Assembly: GCF_054482525.1 (NCBI RefSeq)
Contig: NZ_CM137006.1
Reading direction: 5' to 3' (one strand)
DNA length: 64,000 nucleotides
Shown here: piece after piece, positions 41,379 to 60,696 of the stretch
Numbering within the stretch: the first letter of the stretch is position 1
Layout of the letters: each line of letters opens with the position of its first letter
Notes under the pieces: model-generated
What the model saw: the letters and a program-made list of their open reading frames with translations, nothing else
Told to the model about the DNA's origin: nothing
Databases searched by the model: none
Translations under genes and position numbers: made by a program

Positions 41379-42062
41379 ATGACTGAATGGCTTAATGCAC
41401 ATTTTGGTGCAGACGCAGCTACCTATCTTAGCTTATTAGTCGGCGTACTGGCACTGTTTGGTATTGGGGGCGGTGTTACATATAGAATCAGACAGCAAAA
41501 CAACATAAAACAGAAGGCAAAGAAAACCGAGGGTGATGTGAACCAGGCCGGGCGGGATATTAATCAGACCACCAACGTTTACCACACATCCAATGAATCT
41601 ACTGAGGACCCTGTAAAAAAAAAGCAAGATGAACATGATCTGAAGATAATCGACCAGATCCTTGAATTGCTGCCTTATGAGGATACTACTCAATGGGTTG
41701 AGCAGAGCTACCTGAGCGGTATACGGCAAGATGTTTGCTTAAACATTGAAAAAGCTGAAAAATTTAGCGGTGAAAAGTATCGGTTATTCAATACTGAAGT
41801 GAATGGTGCGAAAGACGCTTTTTTGGACGCTATGACCGCATACGTAGATAGTACGCTACCATTTATGAGTGTTGATTACCCGAACAGAAAGCCAGTGATG
41901 CTAAGCCTTCCCCATGACTGGAAGAGTAAGAGTGTTGAATCGGAGGCAAACTTCCGCTTTCATCAGCAAAATGTGCGTGAAACATCGGGGGGGATGATTG
42001 CGCGCTATGAGGATTTTGTCAGGACATTTAAGGCTCATGGATTCATAAGCGATAAACTGTAA
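41379..42062 (+). CDS. Hypothetical N-terminally membrane-anchored protein (227 aa)
   Basis: ATG preceded by AAGGA and a TATAAT -10 box at 41343-41348; one predicted TM helix (YLSLLVGVLALFGIGGGV); own terminator downstream; no recognised domain. Confidence 0.6.
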   Translation: MTEWLNAHFGADAATYLSLLVGVLALFGIGGGVTYRIRQQNNIKQKAKKTEGDVNQAGRDINQTTNVYHTSNESTEDPVKKKQDEHDLKIIDQILELLPYEDTTQWVEQSYLSGIRQDVCLNIEKAEKFSGEKYRLFNTEVNGAKDAFLDAMTAYVDSTLPFMSVDYPNRKPVMLSLPHDWKSKSVESEANFRFHQQNVRETSGGMIARYEDFVRTFKAHGFISDKL

Positions 42063-42141
42063 AGGCGCAGTGGGTCAGCGAACACCGCAACGACAGAACC
42101 GCGTAAGCGGTAAAATCAGCTTGTTAACTGGCGAGTTTATA

Positions 42142-42166
42142 GCCGTCCCTCCGGGGCGGCTTTTTT
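42142..42166 (+). terminator. Rho-independent terminator after gene 41379-42062 (GCCGTCCCtccGGGGCGGC + TTTTTT)
   Basis: Hairpin followed by a T-run 80 bp after the stop codon. Confidence 0.6.
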
Positions 42167-42416
42167 ATGACTATAATCGACAGAATCACCTGAACGTCCA
42201 GGTGGGTTTCCCTGACAGGACGTCAAGGAATGTTCGCTTTGTGCCAGGAGCGGACGTTGCCAGCATTGAGTTTTCAGTTTTCAAAGGTATATCTTTAGAT
42301 TTAGTTCACTTAGAATGAGCGTGTTAAAGTTTTCGGTTATGTGAGTATATTGAACATAACAAATAAACAATAATTTTTGTATTCCATTTAAGATATAAAA
42401 AAGAGGGATTTGAGTT

Positions 42417-43202
42417 ATGTACGATTATAGTTTTTTACTTACTCCATCTACAGGATTTGTTAAAGGATTATGTGGAGTTTGGTCGAATGATTTCTCTATA
42501 AATGATGATTCTGACTCTGATTTAGGGCAAACAGATATTCATTTACTTTCATCTCCTCATTTGAATATCATATCCGACCCAAATGAATTGGCTTCCAAGT
42601 TAAAAGGTTTGTTGATGCTCATGAACGGCGCACTTAGCGTTCTTTATGGTTTTGAAAGATATCAATCTTTTGGTCCTCTTTCTATTTCTGGAAGTGAAGG
42701 CATTAATTACTCGGAAATATGCGGCTTTAAATCAATGGATGTAACTCAGGTAAATCCCTTTAATTTCCATGACATACAGCAACCACACCCTCGCGCTGAT
42801 AATTTTTCACGATTAATTAATTTATCATCTAAACATGAATCCTTACGTGTTGTTTTAGGTATGTGTGCCTTAGGTTATGATTGGGTTAATCTTTATCGTT
42901 TGTGGGAAACAATTAGAGAATATGTATATGATAAATATGTGAAAGGTATACTAAATTTTCCCGACGCTTATAAAGGCAAGAAATATCAGAGAGATAAAGT
43001 AATTAGCATGGCTTTTAATATTGATGAAAAGGAAATCAGCAGATTCACGGGCACTGCTAATAGCTTTGAACTGTTAGGGTATCTTGCGAGACATGGAAAG
43101 GGAAGTTCCGGAGGGATATTAAAAAATCCGATGTCAAGAGTTGACGCAAGCAATTTCGTACACAAAGCAACTTACAAATATTGTAAGTTATTTTTGATGT
43201 AA
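42417..43202 (+). CDS. Hypothetical protein (261 aa), strongly AT-rich gene of likely foreign origin
   Basis: Clean ORF preceded by AAGAGGGA RBS; codon usage and GC content far below the flanking DNA; no recognised domain. Confidence 0.6.
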   Translation: MYDYSFLLTPSTGFVKGLCGVWSNDFSINDDSDSDLGQTDIHLLSSPHLNIISDPNELASKLKGLLMLMNGALSVLYGFERYQSFGPLSISGSEGINYSEICGFKSMDVTQVNPFNFHDIQQPHPRADNFSRLINLSSKHESLRVVLGMCALGYDWVNLYRLWETIREYVYDKYVKGILNFPDAYKGKKYQRDKVISMAFNIDEKEISRFTGTANSFELLGYLARHGKGSSGGILKNPMSRVDASNFVHKATYKYCKLFLM

Positions 43203-43363
43203 GTAAAAAGTTGAAGCTATAATACTCAAAGTATCGAAAACTACGTTCGTCGTGCACTCGAAAACAATATGCTTATTGTGTCTGCACTAATTACTCAAGG
43301 TCCGAGAAAAATGGCGAAGCTCATCTTTTTCAGGCTTCGCCAACTTGAGTTATTGGTTAAAAT

Positions 43364-44116
43364 TCATTTAGGAATAATAGAATGCAATTCGTGACTCACC
43401 TGGATTTCATAGTGTTTCAATAGTTCTCCGATGTTAATTCCTACTACCTTACGAACTGCGCCGAGGGAGAAGTTAAGCTCCTCAATGCCCGGCCGATCTG
43501 GCGTTGAATTCATATAGTGTCGGCACGCACGGACAATTGACTCGACGATCAACGATAGCGGAGACTCAGGTGCAATCTCGGAGCGAATCGCCGTAAGAGA
43601 GAGTCGGAGCTCCTTCAAAGAATCCGAGACTCGTGCTGGATCCTCTTGAGCATATGGCAGATAAAGAGAACTCTTGTCTTCCAATAAATGGATCACCCGC
43701 AGAGCAATTTTCTCGTCTGGGCGATGCGATAGAAATTGAAACATTAGCCTCTTTCCTCCCTCCAAGCACTCCTTCATTAGTGATTCGTGGTCACGTTTCC
43801 ATTTTCGCAAATACTCGGCGGGGTAGCCCATACCGCCATTCTTATCAACTAAATCAGCACAAGCTCCGCACAACCATATAGCATTTTTTATGCTCTTCCG
43901 CTCTGTTTCTGACTGAGACATGTCATAGCGCGGTCCGCCAGGGCTCGCCGCGCAGATATGCGCCGCCTCACCCGTCTTGATAGAAAGATTTTCCGCCAAT
44001 TGATCCGGGCCGATTGTTACCCTATGACAAGAGGGATTGCTACAAATATATGTAGCGCGCTCTGCTACCTTACCTACAACGCTTGGAGGAAAGTTGTGCC
44101 TATTTGTCTTGGTCAT
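43364..44116 (-). CDS. Hypothetical protein with N-terminal HNH-nuclease-like motif (250 aa)
   Basis: CSNPSCH ... EAAHICAASPGGPRY ... NAIWLCGACADLVD resembles the Cys-pair/His/Asn arrangement of HNH endonucleases; C-terminal domain unrecognised. Confidence 0.55.
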   Translation of the reverse strand: MTKTNRHNFPPSVVGKVAERATYICSNPSCHRVTIGPDQLAENLSIKTGEAAHICAASPGGPRYDMSQSETERKSIKNAIWLCGACADLVDKNGGMGYPAEYLRKWKRDHESLMKECLEGGKRLMFQFLSHRPDEKIALRVIHLLEDKSSLYLPYAQEDPARVSDSLKELRLSLTAIRSEIAPESPLSLIVESIVRACRHYMNSTPDRPGIEELNFSLGAVRKVVGINIGELLKHYEIQVSHELHSIIPK

Positions 44117-45089
44117 AAAAGTTATGCTTCTTTGTTTTTTTCATCTATGTGGGGAGAATAAAATCATACTTTTTATATCTGATCCTAGGTCTGACCAGCA
44201 ACCTATTGATCAAAAAACCAAGATATTAGCTAAAAAAAATCAGCATACTTGAGACCAAGCTCAATGTCCGCTCCTCGCTCAAAGCAGACCATTCGCTCAG
44301 TTAACGCATCAGTGTCGTGCTAAAAGTAGACGTGGTTAACAACAATGTGAGTTAATCAACGGAGAGCAGGTCAACTCTAACCTGTATCAAAAAAACAAAT
44401 GTGTCACAAAGATGCCGCATGCCTTAATTTGAGTATAATTGAGACGGAAGTAGACGGTTTATGGCTAAATATTGTTGATATATAGCTATTTGAAGAGTTG
44501 TAGCGCAAGTGTATAGCCCAAACTAATAACGCTACGCCCCTTACCTTTGACGCCTCTTATCAAAGAGCGGCGATGATGCACAGCCCGCACGAGGCAATAT
44601 TCGCACAAGAATCAGGTTCAGAAATAACCTGATCTGGCATGGTGGGGAGAGTATCACTGAGCAGGCTTTCGGTAAAATGCGGCGGGATGAGGTCGGCGTG
44701 GGTTGCAGCAGTACAATGTCGCCCGCAGAGGGTAAGCCACAGCGCGGGATCCTCGGTTTCTATCAGGGATTCGACGAAGTGGGCGCAGTTGTCGACCAAG
44801 GCGGTGAAATCCATAGTGACATTATAAGGAAACGAACAATAGATCGAGTAAATCGCAGTCAGGGACAAGGATTGTAGTCATAGAGAAGTCTCCTGTAACG
44901 GTTTTCAGGAAGCTAATCCCGACGCCTGATTTTGCAGGCGCGGAAGGAGAAGATACTGCGGCCATTAATCCGCCACAAGGCATTTACGTGCATAAATCGC
45001 GCAGTCAAATCCGACTCCCACTGTAGTTCTTGAACCTGATACCACATTTAGCTAATTTAGCTAACTTATCTATTATACCAGTGGTTGCC

Positions 45090-45335
45090 ATGAATATGAA
45101 TGAAGACGAGATTTATCGCCATATCCGGCAGGCACTTTCCAGTGCGCCTCGTAACCAGTACACCGTCGAGCTGCACCTGCAAATGATTAAATATGCCGAC
45201 AAACTGGAACACATTACGGCAAAAGCCTTTTGCGAAGGCACTGGTCTGAACCAGAGCCTCGGTACCGAATTCAGCAAAATGCGTAACTTAACCCATCGGT
45301 TAAAGGCCGCCGGTCTGAATACCGATCTGCTGTAA
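45090..45335 (+). CDS. Small hypothetical protein immediately upstream of hsdM (about 81 aa; start uncertain)
   Basis: ORF 45030-45335 ending 40 bp before hsdM; MNMNEDEIYRHIRQALSSAPRNQYTVELHLQMIKYADKLEHITAKAF... Confidence 0.35.
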   Translation: MNMNEDEIYRHIRQALSSAPRNQYTVELHLQMIKYADKLEHITAKAFCEGTGLNQSLGTEFSKMRNLTHRLKAAGLNTDLL

Positions 45336-45374
45336 CCGACTTACGGCACATTATCGCGCAAAACGAGATATTTA

Positions 45375-47813
45375 ATGGCTATCAAAAAAACCGAACTCTA
45401 TTCTTCCCTGTGGGCAAGCTGCGACGAACTGCGTGGCGGGATGGACGCCAGCCAGTACAAAGACTATGTACTGACCCTGCTGTTTATGAAGTACGTTTCC
45501 GATAAGTATAAAGGCGATCCTTACGGGATGATCGTGATACCCAAAGGAGCCAGCTTTGACGATATGGTTGCGCTGAAAAATGACAAAGAGATCGGCGACA
45601 AAATCAACAAAATCATCCACAAGCTGGCGGAAGAGAACGGCCTGAAGGGCGTCATCGACGAAGCCGACTTTAACGACGAAGATAAGCTCGGCAAAGGCAA
45701 GGAAATGATTGACCGCCTGAGCAAGCTTGTCGGTATCTTTGAAGGGTTAAATCTCTCCAGCAACCGGGCCGAAGGCGACGATCTGCTGGGCGATGCCTAT
45801 GAATATCTGATGCGTCACTTCGCAACCGAATCCGGTAAGAGTAAAGGGCAGTTTTACACTCCAGCGGAGGTGTCACGTATTCTGGCGAAGGTGATTGGTA
45901 TTACTCCCGATACTCCGCAAGATGCAACGGTTTATGACCCAACCTGTGGCTCTGGTTCGCTGCTGTTGAAAGTGAATGATGAAGCCCGGCGCGGACTGTC
46001 GATTTTCGGCCAGGAGATGGATAACGCTACCAGTGCGCTGGCGCGGATGAACATGATTCTGCATAACAATGCCACCGCGAAAATCTGGCAGGGCAATACG
46101 CTGAGCGATCCGCAGTGGAAAGAGGCGAACGGCAAACTGAAAGCCTTCGATTTTGCCGTGGCGAACCCGCCTTTTTCCAATAAAAACTGGACCAACGGGC
46201 TGACGCCGAAAAAAGATCCGTTTGAACGCTTCGGCTGGGGTATTCCGCCGGAAAAAAACGGCGATTATGCTTTTTTGTTGCATATCATTAAAAGCCTGAA
46301 AAGTACCGGCAAAGGCGCGGTGATCCTGCCCCACGGCGTACTGTTTCGCGGTAACGCCGAAGCGAATATCCGTGAAAATCTAATCAAGCAGGGCTATATC
46401 AAAGGCGTTATTGGTTTGCCAGCCAACCTGTTTTACGGCACCGGCATCCCGGCGTGCATCATTGTGATTGATAAAGAGCACGCCCACAGCCGCAAAGGCA
46501 TTTTTATGATCGACGCCAGCCGGGGCTTTATCAAAGATGGCAACAAGAACCGCCTGCGTAGCCGAGATATTCACCGCATTGTGGACGTGTTCAACCATCA
46601 GCGAACGGTACCTGGCTACAGCCGGATGGTGCCCTCCAGCGAGATCGCCGGAAATGATTACAACCTGAATATTCCTCGCTATATCGAGAGCGGCGAGCCG
46701 GAAGATTTACACGATCTGACCGCGCACTTACAGGGCGGTATTCCGGCACGCGATGTGGATGCTTTGCAAGATTACTGGCGGGTATTCCCTGCCCTGCGCA
46801 ACGTGCTGTTTGCTGACGACCGTCCCGGTTACTGTCGGGCGCAGGTGAACGCGCAACAGGTGAAACCGACCATTCTGGCGCATCAGGAGTTTAAGGATTT
46901 TGCCACCCGCAGCCTGCTACCGTTTAAAGCGTGGGTGAAAGAGGCAAGTCTGGAAGAGATTCGCAAAGGTGATAAACCCAAAGCGCTAATCCACGATATC
47001 AGCGAAATGCTATTGGCGCAGTACGCCAACAGTGAGTTGCTGAACAAATACAGCGTGTACCAGATCCTGATGGATTACTGGACTGATGTCATGCAAGACG
47101 ATGTGTATGCGATTATGCAGGATGGCTGGCAAGCCGCCGCGCAAATCCGCGAGCTTCAGCCGGTGAAAGGCAAAGATGGCAAAAACATCTGGAAAGAAAC
47201 GCACGATTTCGAGTTTACCAAACGGCGCTACAAGGCCGATGTGCTGCCCCGTTCGCTGGTGGAAATTCGCTGTTTCCCGGAACTGCTGGATGCGCTGAAC
47301 CGCGCGCAGGAGCGCAGTGAAGAAGCCAGTCGTCAGCTAGTGGAATTCATCGAGGAGCAGGCAGGTGAAGAGGATCTGCTGGCCGAGGCGAAGAACGATA
47401 AAGATAAGGTGACGCAAAAGCTGGTGAATGCCCGTCTAGCACAGTTAAAGAAAACCACTGCCGGCCCAGATGAGCTGGCAGTGCTGAACCGCTGCCTGGC
47501 GCTAATTAAGGCCGAAGCCAGTGCGAAAAAAGCGCTGAAAGCCGCACAAGAAGCGCTGGATCGGGCGGTGTTTAAACATTATCCCACGCTGGATGAAGCA
47601 GCGATTAAAACGCTGGTAGTGCAGGATAAGTGGCTGGCAACGTTGCAGGCAGGGATCAAGGCGGAGATTGAGCGTATTACCCAGCAACTGGCGTCGCGCG
47701 TAAAGGAGCTGGAAGAGCGTTATGCTGAACCGTTGCTAGCGCTTGAAGCCTCCGTTGAGGCGTTGAGCGAGAAAGTGGCCGAGCATTTGCGGGCGATGGG
47801 GCTGGAGTGGTGA
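45375..47813 (+). CDS. hsdM: Type I restriction-modification methyltransferase subunit HsdM, unusually long (812 aa) with a C-terminal coiled-coil-like extension
   Basis: AdoMet motif DPTCGSGSLL and catalytic NPPF (VANPPFSNKNW) in the first ~470 aa; last ~300 aa are Ala/Glu/Lys-rich helical. Confidence 0.88.
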   Translation: MAIKKTELYSSLWASCDELRGGMDASQYKDYVLTLLFMKYVSDKYKGDPYGMIVIPKGASFDDMVALKNDKEIGDKINKIIHKLAEENGLKGVIDEADFNDEDKLGKGKEMIDRLSKLVGIFEGLNLSSNRAEGDDLLGDAYEYLMRHFATESGKSKGQFYTPAEVSRILAKVIGITPDTPQDATVYDPTCGSGSLLLKVNDEARRGLSIFGQEMDNATSALARMNMILHNNATAKIWQGNTLSDPQWKEANGKLKAFDFAVANPPFSNKNWTNGLTPKKDPFERFGWGIPPEKNGDYAFLLHIIKSLKSTGKGAVILPHGVLFRGNAEANIRENLIKQGYIKGVIGLPANLFYGTGIPACIIVIDKEHAHSRKGIFMIDASRGFIKDGNKNRLRSRDIHRIVDVFNHQRTVPGYSRMVPSSEIAGNDYNLNIPRYIESGEPEDLHDLTAHLQGGIPARDVDALQDYWRVFPALRNVLFADDRPGYCRAQVNAQQVKPTILAHQEFKDFATRSLLPFKAWVKEASLEEIRKGDKPKALIHDISEMLLAQYANSELLNKYSVYQILMDYWTDVMQDDVYAIMQDGWQAAAQIRELQPVKGKDGKNIWKETHDFEFTKRRYKADVLPRSLVEIRCFPELLDALNRAQERSEEASRQLVEFIEEQAGEEDLLAEAKNDKDKVTQKLVNARLAQLKKTTAGPDELAVLNRCLALIKAEASAKKALKAAQEALDRAVFKHYPTLDEAAIKTLVVQDKWLATLQAGIKAEIERITQQLASRVKELEERYAEPLLALEASVEALSEKVAEHLRAMGLEW

Positions 47814-49147
47814 TGGTGGATTTAATGGTGAATGAGCAACGGTCGAGTACGGCGGGGAAAGATGTGCCTGCGGGGTATAAACTGACTGAGGTGGGCGTGA
47901 TTCCTGAGGATTGGGATTGCGTACCATTTGGTAATCTGTTTAAAACAAACACAAAGAAAAAAAAAGTCAGCGATTATGAGCTAGTTTCATTTATTGGGAT
48001 GCAAGATGTTAGTGAAGATGCACAATTAAAAAATAATACTCAACTTCCTTTTAAAGAAGTTAAAAGTGGTTTTACTTACTTTGAAAAAGGGGATGTTTTA
48101 TTAGCTAAAATAACCCCTTGTTTTGAAAATGGAAAAGGATGTCATACCGCTGATTTACCTACTAATGTAGGTTTTGGGAGTACGGAATTTCATGTATTAA
48201 GGGAAAATGAAGACTCCGATTCTCGCTTCATCTATTTTTGGACAACTGATAAAAAATTCAGAGCATCACTGGAATCTGAAATGGTGGGAAGTGCGGGACA
48301 CCGTCGTGTGCCGCTAGTTGCTATAGAAAAATATTTGATTCCATGTCCCCCAAATTTGCAAGAGCAAAGTGCTATTGCTGATTCATTATCTGATATTAAT
48401 AATTTTATTCTAGCTCTAGAAAAGCTTATCGTTAAAAAACAAGCCATTAAAACCGCTACTATGCAGCGACTACTGACTGGTAAAACCCGTTTGCCACAGT
48501 TTGCGTTGCGCAAAGATGGCTCTGCTAAGGGATATAAAAAGAGCGAGTTGGGGGAGATTCCTGAAGATTGGAATTGTATTAATCTTGGTGAGCTAGGTAA
48601 TTGCATTATTGGGTTAACTTACAAACCTGAAGATACATCTGATTATGGTACATTGGTATTACGCTCATCCAACATTCAAAATAATCACTTAGCTTATGAT
48701 GATAACGTCTTCGTCAGCATAGAACCACCTGAGCGCACAATTGTGAAAGAAGGTGATATCTTGGTATGTGTAAGAAATGGCAGTCGCCAACTTATTGGCA
48801 AATGCGCATTAATTGACAAAAATGCGCAGGGCTCAGCATTCGGTGCATTTATGTCAGTATTCCGAACTGATATATATGGATTTACATTTCACCAATTCCA
48901 GTCTGATATTATTCAAAAGCAAATCGCTGAAGTTATGGGTGCCACTATCAATCAGATAACTAACAAAGATATGTTGGGCTTTAAAATCCCATTACCTGAA
49001 AATACAGAAGAACAAGCCGCCATCGCCGCCATCCTCTCCGATATGGACAAGGAAATCCAGATCCTGCAACAGCGTCTGGACAAAACCCGCCAGCTTAAGC
49101 AAGGGATGATGCAGGAACTGTTAACCGGGAAAATCCGCTTAATATAG
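47813..49147 (+). CDS. hsdS: Type I restriction-modification specificity subunit HsdS (two AT-rich target-recognition domains)
   Basis: Conserved central and C-terminal repeats (…LLTGKTRLPQF… and …QELLTGKIRLI) flanking two variable AT-rich domains; ATG overlaps the hsdM stop (ATGA). Confidence 0.85.
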   Translation: MVDLMVNEQRSSTAGKDVPAGYKLTEVGVIPEDWDCVPFGNLFKTNTKKKKVSDYELVSFIGMQDVSEDAQLKNNTQLPFKEVKSGFTYFEKGDVLLAKITPCFENGKGCHTADLPTNVGFGSTEFHVLRENEDSDSRFIYFWTTDKKFRASLESEMVGSAGHRRVPLVAIEKYLIPCPPNLQEQSAIADSLSDINNFILALEKLIVKKQAIKTATMQRLLTGKTRLPQFALRKDGSAKGYKKSELGEIPEDWNCINLGELGNCIIGLTYKPEDTSDYGTLVLRSSNIQNNHLAYDDNVFVSIEPPERTIVKEGDILVCVRNGSRQLIGKCALIDKNAQGSAFGAFMSVFRTDIYGFTFHQFQSDIIQKQIAEVMGATINQITNKDMLGFKIPLPENTEEQAAIAAILSDMDKEIQILQQRLDKTRQLKQGMMQELLTGKIRLI

Positions 49148-49159
49148 AAGGGAAAGCAC

Positions 49160-49816
49160 ATGGCTTATGATTACAGCGCCAGCCTCAACCCGCAAAAAGC
49201 TCTGATCTGGCGTATCGTCCATCGGGACAATATCCCGTGGATTCTGGATAACGGGCTGCACTGCGGCAACAGTCTGGTGCAGGCGGAAAACTGGATCAAT
49301 ATCGGCAACCCGGAGCTGATCGGCAAGCGTGCCGGGCATCCGGTACCTGTCGGAACGGGCGGGACACTGCATGACTATGTGCCGTTTTATTTTACCCCCT
49401 TCTCGCCAATGCTGATGAACATCCACAGCGGGCGCGGCGGCATTAAGCAACGCCCCAATGAGGAGATCGTTATTCTGGTCAGCAACTTGCGAAACGTGGC
49501 AGCACACGACGTACCCTTCGTGTTTACCGACAGCCATGCTTACTATAACTGGACCAACTACTACACCAGTCTGGATAGTCTGGACCAGATCGACTGGCCC
49601 ATTTTGCAGGCACGGGACTTTCGCCGCGATCCAGACGATCCGGCTAAATTTGAACGCTATCAGGCAGAGGCGCTAATCTGGCAACACTGCCCGATCTCTC
49701 TGCTGGATGGGATAATTTGTTACAGCGAAGAGGTCAGGTTACAATTAGAACAATGGCTGTTTCAGCGTAATCTAACAATGTCCGTTCACACACGGGCTGG
49801 ATGGTACTTCTCATGA
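49160..49816 (+). CDS. darT: DarT-like DNA ADP-ribosyltransferase toxin (DUF4433, 218 aa)
   Basis: [38 protein letters not shown]... matches E. coli DarT as I recall it; followed by a macrodomain gene with overlapping stop/start. Confidence 0.8.
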
Positions 49817-50880
49817 TCACATATACACAAGGCAATTTACTGGACGCACCGGTGGAAGCTCTGGTGAATACGGTTAATACCGTCGGTGTCATGGGGAAAG
49901 GCATCGCGTTGATGTTTAAAGAGCGCTTCCCCGAAAATATGAAAGTCTATGCCCTCGCCTGCAAACAAAAGCAGGTGATCACCGGCAAAATGTTCATTAC
50001 CGAAACCGGGGAACTGATGGGACCGCGCTGGATTGTTAATTTTCCGACCAAACAGCACTGGCGCGCTGATTCCCGCATGGAGTGGATTGAAGATGGCTTG
50101 CAGGACTTACGCCGCTTTTTGATTGAAGAGAACGTGCAGTCCATCGCCATTCCACCACTGGGCGCAGGCAACGGTGGTTTGAACTGGCCGGACGTTCGGG
50201 CGCAGATTGAATCTGCCCTTGGCGACCTTCAGGACGTTGATATCCTGATTTACCAACCGACTGAAAAATACCAGAACGTTGCCAAAAGCACTGGCGTAAA
50301 AAAGCTCACTCCCGCCAGAGCCGCCATCGCTGAACTGGTGCGTCGCTACTGGGTATTGGGGATGGAGTGCAGCCTACTGGAAATCCAGAAACTGGCCTGG
50401 CTGTTACAACGCGCCATTGAGCAGCATCAACAGGACGATATCCTCAAACTGCGGTTTGAAGCTCACTATTATGGCCCCTATGCGCCCAATCTGAACCATC
50501 TGCTTAATGCGCTGGACGGCACCTATCTTAAAGCCGAGAAACGCATCCCGGACAGCCAACCGCTGGATGTGATCTGGTTTAACGATCAGAAAAAAGAACA
50601 CGTTAATGCGTATCTGAACAACGAAGCCAGAGAGTGGCTACCTGCGCTGGAGCAGGTCAGCCAGTTAATTGACGGCTTTGAATCGCCGTTTGGTCTGGAG
50701 TTGCTGGCAACCGTAGACTGGTTGCTGAGCCGTGGCGAATGTCAACCAACGCTGGATTCCGTTAAGGAAGGGCTGCACCAGTGGCCTGCGGGCGAACGCT
50801 GGGCCAGCCGTAAGTTGAGGCTGTTTGATAATAATAATCTGCAATTTGCCATTAACCGCGTAATGGAGTTCCATTGCTGA
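49813..50880 (+). CDS. darG: DarG-like macrodomain antitoxin (about 355 aa; alternative start at 49801)
   Basis: N-terminal macrodomain [39 protein letters not shown]; ATG overlaps the darT stop (ATGA). Confidence 0.8.
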
Positions 50881-50898
50881 GGGTTTAAGGAGCGCCTT

Positions 50899-53800
50899 TT
50901 GAGTACCGTGGGCCAGCGCGAACGCGCCACACAGCAGCGTCTGATTCAGTTTTTTGTTGAAGATTTAGGTTACCGCCATCTGAGTCACCGCACCGGGTAC
51001 ACCGGGAACAGCAACATCGACACTAATATACTGAGCGCGTGGCTAAAACGGCGCGGCGTTAATGATACGTTGATCACCCGGGCGTTGCGGCAACTGGATT
51101 CCGCCGCCGCTCTGGGCGAAGGCAAAAAACTCTATTACGCCAATAAAGAGGTCTATCGCCTGCTGCGTTACGGCGTGAAAGACAAAGAAGGCGCAGGCGA
51201 GCAGAACCAAACCGTGTGGCTGATTGACTGGGCCAACCCACAAGCCAATGATTTCGCCATCGCCGATGAGGTGACGGTCAAAGGCGAGTACTGCAAGCGC
51301 CCGGATCTGGTGCTGTACGTTAACGGCATTGCGCTGGGCGTGATTGAACTTAAGCGTTCGTCAGTGCACGTCAGCGAAGGCATCCGGCAGAATCTCGATA
51401 ATCAAAAGAAAACCTTTATCCGCGATTTCTTCACCACTATGCAGTTAGTGATGGCGGGCAACGATACGCAGGGCCTGCGCTACGGCACCATCGAAACCCC
51501 GGAAAAATACTATCTGGAGTGGAAAGAAGATAATCCAGGCGACTATACACATAAACTCGACTTTCATTTAAGTCGTCTGTGTAGCAAATCCAGGCTGTTG
51601 GATATCGTCCATAATTACATTGCCTTTGATGTCGGGGTGAAAAAACTCTGCCGCCATAATCAGTTCTTCGGCGTCGAGGCGGCTAAACAACATATTGCCC
51701 GTCGTGAAGGCGGTATTATCTGGCACACACAGGGATCGGGTAAAAGCCTGACGATGGTCTGGCTGGCGAAGTGGATCCGTGAAAATGTGCCAAACTCCCG
51801 CGTGTTGATTGTGACTGACCGCACCGAACTGGATGAACAGATCGAAAGCGTGTTTATGGGCGTGAATGAAGATATTTATCGCACCTCCAGCGGCAACGAT
51901 CTTATCGCAACGCTCAATCATCCTAACCCGTGGCTCATTTGCTCGCTGGTGCATAAATTTGGTCGTCGCAGCGAAGCTGAAGACAATGCGGCTACCGACG
52001 CCTTTATCACCGAATTACAGCAGTCCCTGACGAAAACATTCCGCGCCAAAGGCGATCTGTTTGTTTTTGTGGACGAGTGCCACCGCACACAATCCGGCAA
52101 GCTGCATAACGCCATGACTGCCATTCTGCCGGACGCCCTGTTTATCGGTTTTACCGGCACACCGCTGATGAAGAAAGATAAGAAGAAGTCGGTTGAGGTG
52201 TTCGGCCCTTATATCCATACCTATAAATTTGATGAAGCGGTGGCCGACGGTGTGGTGCTGGATCTGCGCTACGAGGCACGCGATATTGACCAGTATCTGA
52301 CATCAGAGAAAAAGGTCGATGACTGGTTTGAAGCCAAGACTCGCGGTTTGTCGAATTTAGCCAGGACCCAGCTTAAGCAAAAGTGGGGATCAATGCAGAA
52401 GCTGCTCTCCAGCAAGTCGCGGCTGGAGCAGATCGTTAACGACATTTTGCTGGATATGGATACCCGTCCACGCCTGATGGACGGGCGCGGCAACGCCATG
52501 CTGGTATGCAGCAGTATCTATCAAGCCTGCAAGGTTTACGAGATGTTCAGCCAGACCGAGCTGGCAGGAAAAGTAGCGATTGTGACCAGCTATCGCCCCG
52601 ATGCCGCCAGCATCAAAGGCGAAGAAACGGGCGAAGGGTTAACGGAGAAACTCTCTAAACACGCCACCTATCGTAAAATGTTGGCTGACTATTTTGAACA
52701 AAGTGAAGAGAAGGCCGCCGCACGCATTACCGAGTTCGAGCGGGAAATGAAACAGCGTTTTATTGAAGAGCCGGGGCAAATGCGCCTGCTTATCGTGGTG
52801 GATAAGCTGCTGACTGGCTTTGACGCGCCGTCCGCCACCTATCTCTACATTGATAAAACCATGACCGACCATACGCTGTTTCAGGCGATTTGTCGGGTGA
52901 ACCGGCTGGACGGTGAGGATAAAGAGTATGGCTATATTATCGATTATAAAGATCTGTTCCGTTCGCTGGATAAAGCGATTACCGATTACACCACGGGCGC
53001 GTTTGATGATTACGATCGGGACGATGTGGCCGGGTTGCTGAAAGACAGGCTGGAGCAGGCGCAACTGGATCTCGACAGCGCGCTGGAGATGGTTCGCAGC
53101 TTATGTGAACCCGTCAAAACCCCGCGCAGCCTGCTGGACTATCAGCACTATTTTTGCGGTGAATCAGGAGAGAATCAGACTTCGTTAAACGAAAAAGAGG
53201 CGCTGCGCCTGACATTTTACCAGTGCGTCGCCCGTCTGCTACGCGCTTATGCCAGCATCGCCAATGAAATGCCGGAAGCAGGCTACACTGCCGAAGAGGT
53301 AGAGAGCATTCGCGCCGAAGTCGCTGAATTCGAAAAACTGCGCTATGAGATTAAGCTGACCAGCGGCGATCTTCTGGATATGAAGCGCTTTGAACCCGCT
53401 ATGCGTCATTTACTGGATATGTATGTTCGCGCCGATGGTAGCGAAGTGCTGATGGATTTTGAAGAGTTAAGTCTGATTGAACTGATTGTCGAGAAAGGCT
53501 TGGCGGCGACCGTCGCCCTGCCGGATGATATCCGTAATAATCAGGATGCGATGGCGGAAACCATCGAAAACAACGTGCGCAAAACCATCGTGGATGAAAA
53601 CCCGGTTAACCCAAAATACTATGGACGCATGTCGCAGCTGCTGGATGAACTGATTACCCTTCGCCGACAAAATGCGCTCAATTATCAGCAGTATCTGGAA
53701 CGTATCCGCGATTTGTGTAAACAGGTCATCCGCCCGGAGCAAACCGCCGGAGCGTGCTACCCTGCCACCATGGATACACAAGCAAAGCGCGCCTTCTATG

Positions 53801-53994
53801 ATAACTTCGGCCACGACGAGGTACTGGCGACCCGCATAGATACGACGATTCGCTATACCAAAAGGGCAGAGTGGATTGGCGATCGTTTTAAAGAACGGGA
53901 AATTGCCAACGCATTACGTGAAGAGACCGCCAGCTATAATATTGATATTGATGAGGTGATAGCGCTTGCCCGTCAGCAGAAGGAATATCACTGA
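50899..53994 (+). CDS. hsdR: Type I restriction enzyme endonuclease/helicase subunit HsdR (1031 aa, TTG start after AAGGAG)
   Basis: Helicase motif I HTQGSGKSLTMV, motif II LFVFVDECHRTQSG; size typical of HsdR. Confidence 0.88.
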   Translation: MSTVGQRERATQQRLIQFFVEDLGYRHLSHRTGYTGNSNIDTNILSAWLKRRGVNDTLITRALRQLDSAAALGEGKKLYYANKEVYRLLRYGVKDKEGAGEQNQTVWLIDWANPQANDFAIADEVTVKGEYCKRPDLVLYVNGIALGVIELKRSSVHVSEGIRQNLDNQKKTFIRDFFTTMQLVMAGNDTQGLRYGTIETPEKYYLEWKEDNPGDYTHKLDFHLSRLCSKSRLLDIVHNYIAFDVGVKKLCRHNQFFGVEAAKQHIARREGGIIWHTQGSGKSLTMVWLAKWIRENVPNSRVLIVTDRTELDEQIESVFMGVNEDIYRTSSGNDLIATLNHPNPWLICSLVHKFGRRSEAEDNAATDAFITELQQSLTKTFRAKGDLFVFVDECHRTQSGKLHNAMTAILPDALFIGFTGTPLMKKDKKKSVEVFGPYIHTYKFDEAVADGVVLDLRYEARDIDQYLTSEKKVDDWFEAKTRGLSNLARTQLKQKWGSMQKLLSSKSRLEQIVNDILLDMDTRPRLMDGRGNAMLVCSSIYQACKVYEMFSQTELAGKVAIVTSYRPDAASIKGEETGEGLTEKLSKHATYRKMLADYFEQSEEKAAARITEFEREMKQRFIEEPGQMRLLIVVDKLLTGFDAPSATYLYIDKTMTDHTLFQAICRVNRLDGEDKEYGYIIDYKDLFRSLDKAITDYTTGAFDDYDRDDVAGLLKDRLEQAQLDLDSALEMVRSLCEPVKTPRSLLDYQHYFCGESGENQTSLNEKEALRLTFYQCVARLLRAYASIANEMPEAGYTAEEVESIRAEVAEFEKLRYEIKLTSGDLLDMKRFEPAMRHLLDMYVRADGSEVLMDFEELSLIELIVEKGLAATVALPDDIRNNQDAMAETIENNVRKTIVDENPVNPKYYGRMSQLLDELITLRRQNALNYQQYLERIRDLCKQVIRPEQTAGACYPATMDTQAKRAFYDNFGHDEVLATRIDTTIRYTKRAEWIGDRFKEREIANALREETASYNIDIDEVIALARQQKEYH

Positions 53995-54710
53995 TGCCAA
54001 TCATGCAAATAGGCTCGTTACACTTGCTGGTCAACCGTAAGGCGATTAAGAATCTGCATATCAGCGTGCTGCCGCCTGATGGCAAAGTACGCGTTTCAGC
54101 GCCGGAACATATGACGGAGACGGCGATTCGTATGGCGGTTGCTTCACGCTTTCGCTGGATCAGAAAACAGCAGCAGGATTTCGCCAGACAGCCTCGTCAA
54201 TCAGAGAGGGAAATGGTCAGCGGAGAGTGCCACTATCTTTGGGGCCGAAGATATCGCCTACTTGTGATTGAGCGTCACGGGCGTCACGAAGTAAAAGTTG
54301 CAGGAAATAATAAGCTCCAGCTTTATGTTCAACCAGGAACCCGTGATGAAAATAAGGCATTGGCGTTAAGTGAATTTTATCGACATGAACTAAAACAGCA
54401 GGTGGCTAAGCTTCTACCTGAATGGCAGGACCGAATCGGTGTTCCCCTAACATTCTGGGGCATCAAAAAGATGAAAACCTTTTGGGGCACCTGTAACACT
54501 ACAACAAAACGAATCTGGCTCAATCTGGAGCTAATTAAGAAGCCGCCGGAGTGTCTGGAGTATATTCTGGTGCATGAACTGGTTCATCTTCTGGAACGTC
54601 ACCATAATGCTCGCTTCCGGTTGCATATGGATCGGTTTATTCCTGACTGGCGTGAGCGTCGGGATTTGTTAAATAATATGCCGTTAGCGTTTGAGGCATG
54701 GGAGTATTGA
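53994..54710 (+). CDS. Zinc metallopeptidase-like protein (YgjP/DUF45/M48-like, HExxH), start overlapping the hsdR stop
   Basis: HELVHLLERHH motif; ATG at 53994 overlaps the hsdR TGA. Confidence 0.7.
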   Translation: MPIMQIGSLHLLVNRKAIKNLHISVLPPDGKVRVSAPEHMTETAIRMAVASRFRWIRKQQQDFARQPRQSEREMVSGECHYLWGRRYRLLVIERHGRHEVKVAGNNKLQLYVQPGTRDENKALALSEFYRHELKQQVAKLLPEWQDRIGVPLTFWGIKKMKTFWGTCNTTTKRIWLNLELIKKPPECLEYILVHELVHLLERHHNARFRLHMDRFIPDWRERRDLLNNMPLAFEAWEY

Positions 54711-55079
54711 TTGAGCCTGTAACTGTTTTTTGTCCATAAATTAACCTTCATTTGATGCTGGATTGAACATATCAAAATCAGACAATTACACAAATCTATG
54801 TACAGGCTCTTCAATTTGTTTTTGATCGCTGATGTGACTGACAACAAACGCTCACGGAACACTAAATCCCGCTCTTCAGACGTTAACTCGCCTCGCTCAA
54901 TAAGCTCTCTGATAGAATCTCGTGGCGTTGGCGTGACTACTTCAAAACAAAAAGTCTCACCATTTTTCTCGGCGACAAAGTCTGGTCCAGCATCCTTGCT
55001 TTTAATGTCGCTAAAGCCCATCTCCATAAGGTAGCCTGAGTTTAACGGACACTCCTTCGTAAGGACGCTGTAAGCAGAA

Positions 55080-55659
55080 ACGCAAGTTCAGAGCGACTAC
55101 GAACTCGAACCACAATCTGCCAGTTGCGCCAAATCTGCTGAACCAGACGTTCGCTCCTACAGCACCAAATCAGGTCTGGGTGGCGGACCTGACGTATGTT
55201 GCCACACAGGAGGGATGGTTGTACCTCGCTGGCATCAAAGATGTTTATACGTGCGAAATTGTCGGCTACGCCATGGGAGAGCGCATGACAAAAGAGCTGA
55301 CAGGTAAAGCCCTGTTTATGGCGCTCAGGAGCCAGCGCCCACCTGCCGGGCTAATCCATCACTCTGATCGAGGTTCACAGTACTGCGCATACGATTACCG
55401 GATCATACAGGAGCAGTTTGGTCTGAAAACGTCAATGTCGCGTAAAGGTAACTGTTACGACAACGCTCCGATGGAAAGCTTCTGGGGAACGCTGAAAAAT
55501 GAGAGCCTGAGCCACTATCGTTTTAATAACCGGGATGAAGCCATCTCAGTAATACGGGAATACATTGAGATTTTCTACAATCGTCAGCGTCGTCACTCTC
55601 GTCTGGGGAATATCTCCCCGGCAGCCTTCAGGGAAAAATATCATCAGATGACTGCTTAA
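55080..55659 (+). mobile_element. IS3-family transposase fragment (C-terminal DDE/integrase part of orfB only)
   Basis: ...PNQVWVADLTYVATQEGWLYLAGIKDVYTCEIVGYAM...HSDRGSQYCAYDY...NCYDNAPMESFWGTLKNE... is the DDE-domain C-terminal half; no N-terminal half, orfA or inverted repeats seen. Confidence 0.75.
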
Positions 55660-59769: not shown

Positions 59770-60620
59770 CTGTCTTCGGTATTTTGGCGCAAAAAACTAT
59801 GTGATATTTACAGTTCCATCGGGTGTGCGCTAAGCTCTTTTCGTTCCCCATTGGGACCCCCTTTTGATTTCTTGTTTGACACTTGCAGTTGCCAGACCGC
59901 AAGGTGTTTTAACAAATCAAAAGGGGTTTTAATAACTGGCTCAAAGCTGAAAGCTTTCCGGAACCCCCAGCCTAGCTGGGAGTTTTCTGTGCACAAAAAA
60001 ACCCTGTAAAAAACTTACAGGGGTATAAGGCTTAGCCTAACTTGCGTCTGTTGCATGGTGCCGGGTGCCTCCCGGTGAATTCAGTCGGTGTCACTGAACC
60101 CGCGTAGGCTTCGCTCATAACATAATAAATGCTATGTACACCAGTCGCCCCACCGCACAGGGGGATTCACCACACGGCGCACTTTTTAACAAATATCCCT
60201 CCGGCCAGACAATAATAAACATAATGAATTGTGATCTTCTTAACAGTTTTAAAGTGTTACAGATAACATGCCAAGTAATTGCTTGTTTTTTCATCAATAG
60301 GAAGACCACACCAACAACCCCAGCTATCAGCCAGAACCGACATTATCCGGCTGATAAAATCTACCATCACTCCAACACCAATCACCGCCTGTGCCAGATC
60401 GCGTTTCTCAAACTTTTTAATCTCTGTTGCCACTCTGCGGGTTTTCTTTTTGAATTTTGAAAATACCAAATATCGTGACGTTTCTTTGGGGGATGAGCTA
60501 TCAAGCGGGAACGATCTGCCTACAGAGAAAGTCAGCCAGACCACTCTGCAAATTATCCCCGAAAGGCTCTGTGGCTGATATGCGCCGGGCATGGCGCAAT
60601 GGGCCAGTGGCAGTGTGTGA

Positions 60621-60696
60621 TGGTGGCCCTTACTGGATTTGAACCAGCGACCAAGCGATTATGAGTCCTCTTACCACTGAGCTAAAGGGTTGGAGA
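60621..60696 (-). pseudogene. Degenerate tRNA-like sequence (CAU anticodon loop, tRNA-Ile2/Met-like 3' part with intact T-arm and CCA; disrupted acceptor stem)
   Basis: Minus strand reads ...AGCTCAGTGGTAAGAGGACTCATAATCGCTTGGTCGCTGGTTCAAATCCAGTAAGGGCCACCA; first two acceptor-stem pairs are mismatched and the anticodon stem looks shortened. Confidence 0.5.

Follow-up and report, generated by a model that had tools for sequence, protein, structure and literature searches.

[quoted passage not shown]

The window analysed here is a stretch of 64,000 nucleotides of contig NZ_CM137006.1 (RefSeq assembly GCF_054482525.1), read on one strand. It contains seven co-directional open reading frames in the order rptR-hsdM-hsdS-darT-darG-hsdR-M48 peptidase, which is the arrangement of the anti-phage island RRDM (RptR-RMS-DarTG2-M48). 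An earlier note on this DNA had described six co-directional genes, hsdM-hsdS-darT-darG-hsdR-metallopeptidase, between 45375 and 54710. The coordinates of all six on the plus strand were confirmed, and the gene starts are identical in the RefSeq annotation of a genome with 100% identity; the unit does not, however, begin at 45375, since a seventh gene, rptR, and a promoter/operator region located upstream had been overlooked. The start of hsdM lies 39 bp 3' of rptR. A chance test of the gene content was unnecessary because the family scores far exceed the curated cut-offs, and all catalytic motifs of the cluster are intact.

Table 1 Features of the cassette and its genes (positions in the window)
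Feature	Position	Strand	Description
Mobile cassette	44250..54809	.	Stretch conserved across four different E. coli chromosomal contexts
Divergent ORF inside the cassette	44563-44817	-	84 aa; within the conserved limits
Island promoter and RptR operator	45030..45072	+	Motif positions; elements with demonstrated function in EPEC (PMC12255303)
rptR	45096..45335	+	79-aa putative repressor of the island promoter; match to PDB 9r2z chain A and published orthologue
hsdM	45375..47813	+	Type I N6-adenine DNA methyltransferase, 812 aa
hsdS	47813 (ATG; or GTG at 47810)..49147	+	Specificity subunit, two target-recognition domains
darT	49160..49816	+	DarT2 toxin, ssDNA thymidine ADP-ribosyltransferase (predicted activity)
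darG	49813..50880	+	DarG2 antitoxin: N-terminal macrodomain (ADP-ribosyl-DNA glycohydrolase) and C-terminal DarT-binding domain
hsdR	50899 (TTG)..53994	+	Type I restriction endonuclease/translocase, 1031 aa
YgjP-like ("M48 family") zinc metallopeptidase	53994..54710	+	238 aa; PF01863

[quoted passage not shown] HsdM matches the PADLOC model MTase_I (PDLC03027) from end to end with 1426 bits and TIGR00497 with 282.8 bits (cut-off 242.75); it comprises the Pfam domains HsdM_N and N6_Mtase with AdoMet motif I (DPTCGSG) at residue 188 and catalytic motif IV (NPPF) at residue 264, followed by a C-terminal extension of ~370 aa in which no Pfam domain is recognized. HsdS is matched over residues 8-444 by Specificity_I (PADLOC PDLC03098, E 3e-131), and its gene has a low GC content (39%, GC3 34%) and an internal repeat of 48 nt with copies at 47872 and 48529. 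Variation of hsdS between the E. coli copies is confined to the recognition-domain regions, which are swapped between alleles. HsdR is matched over residues 1-1007 by REase_I (PADLOC PDLC03044, 1634 bits) and by TIGR00348 with 545.6 bits (cut-off 284.55), and displays the PD-(D/E)xK nuclease motif (D136...E150-L-K, ELK152) as well as the SF2 helicase motifs GSGKS at 279 and DECH at 392.

The identity of the toxin-antitoxin pair, for which the earlier note had set failed homology as the refuting outcome, was borne out by scores above both cut-offs: DarT scored 262.6 bits against NCBIfam NF048013 (cut-off 150) and DarG 451.2 bits against NF048014 (cut-off 250). DarT (DUF4433, PF14487) is also recognized by the PADLOC DarT model (E 1.9e-74) and aligns over its full length with Thermus DarT (7omv). 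Both positions that were altered by mutation in the EPEC study (PMC7003065), G49 and the catalytic E170, are retained, and E170 aligns with the mutated E160 position of 7omv. Residues 1-152 of DarG match the macrodomains 5m31 and 5m3i (DarG) and residues 183-351 the C-terminal domain of M. tuberculosis DarG (7yk3_B); the catalytic lysine K80 of NFPTK is present and the N-terminal domain is a macrodomain, not NADAR. It carries the accession given for the EPEC protein, WP_000634203.1, and the longer 359-aa reading is identical to an O127:H6 entry. For the EPEC pair, whose DarG is identical to the present copy, neutralization of DarT toxicity by DarG and ADP-ribosylation of thymidine in ssDNA have been demonstrated (PMC7003065). 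No insertion scars in the form of direct or inverted repeats were found around darTG, the internal repeat of hsdS being the sole meaningful one.

The last gene encodes a peptidase assigned to the YgjP-like family (E 1.6e-61) with the zinc-binding HEXXH motif (HELVH) at residue 194 and, like DarG, with the accession named for EPEC (WP_001122107.1). A role as an RptR-specific protease was considered and is weakened by relatives in which the peptidase accompanies HsdR and an HTH_26 regulator takes the place of RptR.

Searches with PADLOC and NCBIfam assigned no family to RptR, the peptidase or the small divergent ORF. RptR, named "HTH-like domain-containing protein" in RefSeq, was identified instead through PDB and the RRDM paper: it is identical in 76 of 79 residues to PDB 9r2z chain A, and N2D, N52S and H67R are its sole differences from the EPEC protein. 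On a reading of the sequence, the DNA-binding residues E58 and K61 and the dimerization residues E25, L69, A72 and L74 are kept, and so is S60. Upstream of rptR a -35 element, TTGAAC (45030-45035), is followed after 14 bp by the -10 box AGCTAATTT (45050-45058). An RRDM operator is characterized by two or more copies of the RptR site (TAGCTA/TATCTA/TAGATA/TATATA) that coincide in part with the -10 box 5' of rptR, and this configuration is found here, with predicted sites TAGCTA at 45049, TAGCTA at 45058 and TATCTA at 45067. Such a triplet with 9-bp spacing occurs only once in the 64-kb window, and a search within the cassette found no second RptR operator.

The genes are tightly packed. The gaps of 12 bp between hsdS and darT and of 18 bp between darG and hsdR given in the earlier note were measured as correct, and both hold Shine-Dalgarno-like motifs, AAGGGA in the former and, in the latter, AAGGAG 7 nt 5' of the TTG of hsdR; this start and its AAGGAG site are also kept in Pectobacterium. 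Three ATGA overlaps had been proposed as well, of which only that of darT/darG (4 nt) stands; hsdM/hsdS and hsdR/peptidase share a single nucleotide in TGATG, and the use of GTG at 47810 as the start of hsdS would give an alternative 4-nt GTGA overlap.

The limits of the cassette were defined by blastn of the window against the loci L003, L004 and L005, between which the flanking genes differ. As a block the cassette is present in 247 of 5,426 complete E. coli genomes (about 4.6%), and at the level of megablast none of the 5,426 holds a darTG-less, "empty-site" version of the restriction system; the partial matches in E. coli are all either IS1414 scrap at 54710-54800 or distant hsdM. Among the E. 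coli copies, one carries a frameshift in darT, and in another rptR is truncated, so that not every copy of the cassette is fully functional. The same gene order occurs in Pectobacterium, Methylomarinum and Zooshikella, where the protein identities of DarT and DarG match those of HsdM, HsdR and the peptidase (84-89% in Pectobacterium, 68-78% in Methylomarinum and Zooshikella). In other Gammaproteobacteria DarTG has diverged at a pace matching that of HsdM, HsdR and the peptidase, and its embedding is apparently old and heritable. In the small sample of embedded loci compared here the hsdS-darT junction is always tight and the darG-hsdR spacer is variable. Closely related DarTG pairs (65-83% identity) occur as solitary loci in 7 of the 10 genomes sampled.

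With a probability that we put at roughly 0.85, the region represents a near-identical copy of RRDM, an anti-phage island first characterized in the enteropathogenic E. coli (EPEC) O127:H6 strain E2348/69 (Zhang et al., Nucleic Acids Res 2025, PMC12255303). The two share the same seven genes in the same order, the -35/-10 elements with three RptR sites spaced by 9 bp, the RefSeq accessions of DarG and the peptidase, and a downstream remnant of the IS3 family. The window copy is allelic to that of EPEC: besides the three substitutions in RptR, the accessions of HsdM (WP_000985465 vs ...463), HsdS (WP_000228013 vs ...010), HsdR (WP_000108735 vs ...733) and DarT (WP_000312833 vs ...835) are neighbours of the EPEC ones, and the chromosomal site differs, the window cassette being located in an island adjoining tRNA-Ser(GGA). 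The placement of DarTG between hsdS and hsdR, which was the central observation of the earlier note, matches the published orthologue exactly; it was real and correctly read, but the system was already known. In EPEC the island lowers the efficiency of plating of T7, lambda-vir, TB34, Trib and Baz 10^3- to >10^7-fold, its promoter has been mapped, repression by RptR shown and the RptR structure solved (PMC12255303). By analogy with the EPEC copy, phage resistance and repression by RptR would be expected of the present one.

In the proposed mechanism one sigma-70 promoter 5' of rptR would drive the cluster and would be repressed by an RptR dimer bound to three 6-bp palindromes over the -10 box, both as shown in the EPEC orthologue, where hsdM mRNA rises >15-fold after phage infection (PMC12255303). 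From the spacing (overlaps of 1-4 nt, gaps of 12-39 bp) we infer co-expression of the seven genes, largely as one transcript, and the overlaps make translational coupling probable for hsdM/hsdS, darT/darG and hsdR/peptidase. Promoters or terminators separating darTG from the hsd genes would speak against such an arrangement, as pointed out earlier; the predicted matches occur at chance level, with 14 promoter-like matches within the cluster vs 12.1+/-3.4 in shuffled sequence and 16 terminator-like matches vs 12.6+/-4.0, and none falls in a junction. An Rfam scan of the whole window placed no RNA family within the cassette. Transcription may nevertheless be split: a promoter inside hsdS or darT could account for most of the expression of darTG, with or without that of hsdR and the peptidase, and both toxin-antitoxin pair and nuclease would then be controlled independently of RptR and hsdMS. 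Classical loci of the EcoKI type have separate hsdMS and hsdR promoters. The darG-hsdR spacers of 73 to about 390 bp in relatives make a separate hsdR promoter plausible in the family, yet those of Zooshikella and Methylomarinum, when scanned for promoters and terminators, held nothing convincing. Stand-alone DarTG loci possess their own upstream regions, and a promoter inside hsdS or darG of the present copy is possible; plus-strand promoter-like matches lie in the 3' part of hsdS (48795-48823, 48881-48910 and 48960-48987) and of darT (49717-49745). These are, however, 9/12 consensus matches, which are no more frequent than chance predicts, and those in hsdS fall in the recognition-domain region that is swapped out in other alleles. 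Moreover, junctions of 12 and 18 bp offer no room between the genes, and the cassette lacks a second RptR operator. A 9.8-kb clone with just 159 bp 5' of rptR defends fully, although internal promoters are still compatible with this result. In the EPEC study hsdM was the only mRNA quantified and the authors speak of "native promoter(s)" (PMC12255303). Taken together, we regard split transcription as rather unlikely.

It is established for the type I family that the complex HsdM2S marks host DNA by methylation and that HsdR2M2S cleaves incoming DNA which lacks this mark. Restriction would form a first line of defence, which the cell survives. DarT would ADP-ribosylate thymidine in ssDNA and block replication, and DarG would strip the ADP-ribose mark and sequester DarT, activities that have been demonstrated in DarTG of EPEC and in further DarTG2 systems; infection would tip the DarT/DarG balance and make DarT a second, abortive layer.

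Instead of acting as such a layer, DarTG might chiefly stabilize the restriction cassette through post-segregational killing, an alternative put forward by Jankevicius et al. 2016. Its divergence together with the restriction genes is what a long-term passenger would show, and the absence from E. coli genomes, at the megablast level, of the restriction system minus darTG would fit as well. DarTG2 systems alone, however, defend against phage (literature summarized in PMC12255303), the whole cassette is retained in the copy with a frameshifted darT, type I systems are hard to lose by themselves, and most of the sampled related pairs stand alone; we therefore hold addiction as the chief role to be improbable. 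It seems equally improbable that the restriction system and DarTG are mechanistically linked by direct cross-talk, for example if inhibition of the type I enzyme by an anti-restriction protein of a phage set DarT free, if methylation and ADP-ribosylation influenced each other, or if the peptidase cleaved RptR or DarG on infection. The order hsdS-darTG-hsdR-peptidase is indeed kept across 68-89% protein identity and arose independently in an unrelated type I system of Meiothermus, the EPEC island restricts T7 1000-fold although T7 encodes Ocr, and the RRDM authors raise the question of RptR removal, citing protease-controlled repressors. Against this, DarTG functions alone elsewhere, the peptidase accompanies HsdR even where the regulator is not RptR, and the same slot holds other, unrelated gene pairs (RNA-binding protein and AAA ATPase; DUF262; DUF1016/YhcG; AAA+DUF4276), a variety of cargo more in keeping with a permissive site of insertion than with a specific partnership. 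A functional embedding is also conceivable, albeit with a low probability, in which DarTG, possibly with the YgjP-like peptidase, would serve as a guard, triggered once the type I enzyme is disabled or outrun by a phage such as the Ocr-carrying T7, against which the EPEC island still restricts 1000-fold; DarTG on the hsdMS transcript would tie the toxin-antitoxin dosage to the methyltransferase.

The exact system having been already cloned and assayed against phages, and its regulator solved, the discovery value of the present copy is nil. As an annotation it is useful: it flags a two-layer defence cassette that is complete and apparently intact and whose specificity subunit varies, which is relevant to the host range in phage therapy and to transformation barriers. 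The comparative additions, namely the co-divergence of DarTG with the restriction family and the tight hsdS junction beside a variable hsdR spacing, are small.

Among known systems, the C proteins of type II restriction-modification resemble RptR as small DNA-binding regulators that head a restriction cluster and tune its transcription, whereas RptR has another fold, targets 6-bp palindromes and is solely a repressor, according to the RRDM authors; RptR stands outside this type II controller family. With the DarTG2 systems of Thermus aquaticus, M. tuberculosis and EPEC (Jankevicius 2016, PMC5179494; Lawaree 2020, PMC7003065) the window copy shares a DUF4433 DarT with a catalytic Glu, a DarG composed of a macrodomain and a DarT-binding C-terminus, and the 4-nt darT/darG overlap; many of the DarTG2 loci elsewhere are stand-alone pairs with their own upstream region, whereas just 12 bp precede darT in the window. 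Type I systems that carry cargo between hsdS and hsdR ("guilt by embedding") likewise show the co-directional layout hsdM-hsdS-[cargo]-hsdR, in many cases with a YgjP-like peptidase behind it, as in Meiothermus (DUF262, DarTG, AAA+DUF4276), Zooshikella (DUF1016/YhcG and DarTG) and Methylomarinum. They differ in their cargo and in the cargo-to-hsdR spacer, which ranges from 73 to about 390 bp vs 18 bp in the window, the shortest seen.

The six ORFs hsdM-hsdS-darT-darG-hsdR-peptidase are encoded on the + strand between 45375 and 54710, where the earlier note had placed them, and its reading of a type I restriction-modification operon with an embedded DarTG system describes a real feature which matches the RRDM island of EPEC E2348/69. 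The assignment of two of the ORFs as DarT and DarG homologues is borne out by profile matches well above the cut-offs, and the matches of the other genes to curated models likewise lie far beyond threshold. As read from the translated sequences, the catalytic residues of five products are intact: G49 and E170 in DarT (E170 aligned with the mutated catalytic position of Thermus DarT 7omv), K80 of DarG within NFPTK, DPTCGSG and NPPF in HsdM, the D...ELK nuclease motif, GSGKS and DECH in HsdR, and HELVH in the YgjP-like peptidase. With a type I enzyme the host DNA is methylated and unmodified DNA is cut. HsdM has 812 amino acids, of which the C-terminal ~370 residues (~445-812) match no Pfam domain; the homologues from Pectobacterium, Methylomarinum and Zooshikella, which align along their full length, keep this extension. 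Residues 1-152 of DarG match solved DarG macrodomains and residues 183-351 the DarT-binding domain of Mycobacterium tuberculosis DarG, therefore the pair belongs to the DarTG2 systems (macrodomain antitoxin). The EPEC DarT (including G49D and E170A) and DarG have been characterized biochemically: DarTG carries out reversible ADP-ribosylation of ssDNA which stalls replication, and DarG counters it by two routes (Lawaree et al., PMC7003065).

Upstream of hsdM a 79-aa ORF, overlooked by the earlier note, is identical at 76 of 79 positions to the repressor RptR (PDB 9r2z), and the three positions differing from EPEC RptR are all non-critical. The triplet of palindromes preceding this ORF occurs only once in the 64-kb window; a search of the cassette gave no second RptR operator, and there are no Rfam elements inside the cluster. 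The three proposed gene overlaps exist, but only darT/darG is of the ATGA type and the other two are TGATG; the proposed gaps of 12 and 18 bp are correct. An alternative GTG start of hsdS at 47810 gives a 4-nt GTGA overlap with hsdM. The same gene starts are used in the RefSeq annotation of a genome 100% identical across the 9.8 kb.

Features of the cassette and its surroundings in window coordinates
Feature	Position	Strand	Description
tRNA-Ser(GGA)	27453-27540		ftsK/cydDC/dmsA (serW) context
Island	27541-64000		starts right after tRNA-Ser(GGA)
Low-GC patch	41379-44116		37-45% GC, directly left of the cassette
ORF	41379-42062	+	no family match
ORF	42417-43202	+	no family match
250-aa ORF	43367-44116	-	HNH-endonuclease-like N-terminal region
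84-aa ORF	44563-44817	-	divergent from rptR
-35-type element TTGAAC	45030		upstream of 79-aa ORF
AGCTAATTT	45050		upstream of 79-aa ORF
Three palindromes	TAGCTA 45049, TAGCTA 45058, TATCTA 45067		9-bp-spaced
79-aa ORF (rptR)	45096-45335	+	39 bp upstream of hsdM
hsdM		+	exceeds the TIGR00497 cut-off; end-to-end match to the PADLOC type I model
HsdM C-terminal extension	46710-47810	+	
hsdM/hsdS junction	hsdM TGA 47811-47813, hsdS ATG 47813	+	TGATG, 1-nt overlap
hsdS		+	PADLOC type I specificity model matched end to end
hsdS variable stretches	47915-48384; 48571-49007	+	the second in one copy
hsdS-darT junction		+	12 bp, AAGGGA inside
darT		+	NF048013, 262.6 bits (cut-off 150)
darT/darG junction		+	ATGA, 4-nt overlap
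darG		+	NF048014, 451.2 bits (cut-off 250)
darG-hsdR junction		+	18 bp; AAGGAG 7 nt ahead of TTG start
hsdR		+	exceeds the TIGR00348 cut-off; end-to-end match to the PADLOC type I model
hsdR/peptidase junction		+	TGATG, 1-nt overlap
Peptidase		+	Pfam PF01863 (YgjP-like), E 1.6e-61
IS1414 (IS256-like) end fragment	54710-54800		downstream of cassette
Truncated IS600 (IS3-family) transposase	55066-55659		downstream of cassette
STnc490 and STnc100 sRNA matches	59861-60205		
Weak tRNA-like match	60624-60691		30.7 bits; no tRNA called by ARAGORN

The cassette is present in 247 of the 5,426 complete E. coli genomes, counting those with 80% or more of the 9.8-kb stretch, and no copy of its restriction system without darTG was seen in E. 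coli at megablast level; the remaining matches correspond to IS1414 scrap just 3' of the peptidase gene or to a distant hsdM. Three other copies, each with different neighbours (an integrase and anti-phage dGTPase, a CDI locus, or parA), have the block 44250-54809 in common with the window, and the differences among these copies are essentially confined to the parts of hsdS encoding the recognition domains. The GC3 values of darT (0.64) and darG (0.61) match those of hsdM (0.63) and hsdR (0.61), and that of hsdS is 0.34. In E. coli O157 AR-0429 (locus L004, 3097-3261) rptR is truncated and the rest of the cassette is intact. The common block also contains the 84-aa ORF, which has no family match in PADLOC or NCBIfam.

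Outside E. coli, ten genomes encoding a DarT 65-84% identical to that of the window were sampled. In three of them (Pectobacterium, Methylomarinum and Zooshikella) darTG is embedded in the same manner and followed by the YgjP-like peptidase, and in seven it stands alone, preceded by an upstream region of its own; most plasmid copies are of this stand-alone kind too. The full set of seven genes, an RptR homologue included, is present in Pectobacterium together with two TAGCTA sites; in Methylomarinum and Zooshikella an HTH_26 regulator takes the place of RptR. Protein identities to the window reach 84-89%, 68-78% and 67-74%, respectively, those of DarT/DarG running parallel to those of HsdM/HsdR/peptidase, thus the embedding is old and has been inherited as a unit. 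A plasmid of Meiothermus (L011, 2775-14632) represents an independent occurrence: DarTG follows hsdS in a type I system that is not related to that of the window (22-28% identity), in the closely packed order hsdM-DUF262-hsdS-DarT-DarG-AAA ATPase-DUF4276-hsdR. Where darT directly follows hsdS in embedded loci the junction is 2-12 bp (5 bp in Meiothermus); in Methylomarinum the slot behind the HsdM-S fusion additionally houses a second DarT and a gene for 23S_rRNA_IVP. The darG-hsdR spacer amounts to 18 bp in the window, 73 bp in Pectobacterium and, for the remaining two embedded loci, 236 bp and about 365-390 bp. We infer that DarTG has been added to the end of the methyltransferase transcription unit, at the natural boundary before hsdR, and that this boundary collapsed in the E. 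coli lineage. Several close relatives carry tandem DarT-family genes before darG, a 191-199-aa paralogue and then a 214-218-aa DarT (L017 7423-8657, L018 7424-8651, L019 7423-8657, L025 7397-8645), both stand-alone and embedded; the shorter paralogue is absent from the window. A Moraxella plasmid (L007, 1274-10357) shows another embedded arrangement, DNA methyltransferase-RelB/YafQ-DarT-DarG-DEAD helicase-GIY-YIG nuclease.

It has been shown for the EPEC orthologue that the RptR-repressed promoter is induced on infection and that the whole island protects against phage. The cassette genes would be expressed polycistronically and translation would be coupled wherever two genes overlap (three junctions); restriction would act first, with abortive DarT as the second layer. 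Promoters or terminators separating darTG from the hsd genes were looked for: consensus matches inside the cluster showed no excess over shuffled sequences (promoter-like, 14 vs 12.1+/-3.4; terminator-like, 16 vs 12.6+/-4.0) and none fell at any junction, which is consistent with, though short of proof for, a single long transcript that starts at the rptR promoter. The mRNA quantification of Zhang et al. covers hsdM only, and their text does not mention an operon or co-transcription (PMC12255303). The 3' parts of hsdS and darT contain weak promoter-like matches on the + strand, which are possible internal promoters; those in hsdS sit in a segment swapped between alleles. That such promoters split the transcription unit, which would be compatible with polycistronic expression as the main model, we consider rather doubtful.

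DarTG might also be maintained chiefly as an addiction module, but this reading is weakened because the copy of E. coli 2014C-4135 (L003, 7168-7783), in which darT is frameshifted and darG intact, retains the cassette, and because anti-phage activity of DarTG2 has been published; we regard it as improbable. Direct cross-talk or a guard function between the two systems seems similarly unlikely, since unrelated other cargo is found in the same slot, for example in Meiothermus, where other genes are embedded too.

The island that houses the cassette carries CP4-like genes (CbtA/YeeU, antirestriction protein, Ag43, YeeP-like GTPase). Strain AH65 carries this island with 99.86% identity at the other identical tRNA-Ser gene, adjoining ghrA (serX), and the AH65 locus matching the sRNA region carries a frameshifted IS200/IS605 transposase. 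The low-GC patch may be a further defence module; its 250-aa ORF gave matches to CBASS/SAVED-HNH effector models as well as to PDC-M68A, a candidate system of PADLOC (E 6.6e-24).

The RRDM island of EPEC E2348/69 comprises seven ORFs, RptR-HsdM-HsdS-DarT2-DarG2-HsdR-M48 peptidase, with IS elements on its flanks (Zhang et al., Nucleic Acids Res 2025, PMC12255303). A clone of the island that includes 159 bp upstream decreased the plating of T7 by 10^3, of lambda-vir and TB34 by about 10^4, and of Trib and Baz by >10^7; hsdM mRNA increased >15-fold upon infection, the promoter requires the same -35 and first -10 box, and RptR represses it via TAGCTA-type sites (PMC12255303). The 79-aa ORF, promoter elements and palindromes of the window are exactly those described for RRDM, therefore the finding is correct and already known; it adds nothing new to a system previously published with experiments. 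For DarG (WP_000634203.1) and the peptidase (WP_001122107.1) that paper gives the same accessions as the annotation of the genome to which the window is identical, and translation of darG from the window yields the DarG entry of O127:H6. The cassette is a near-identical allele of the experimentally published system.
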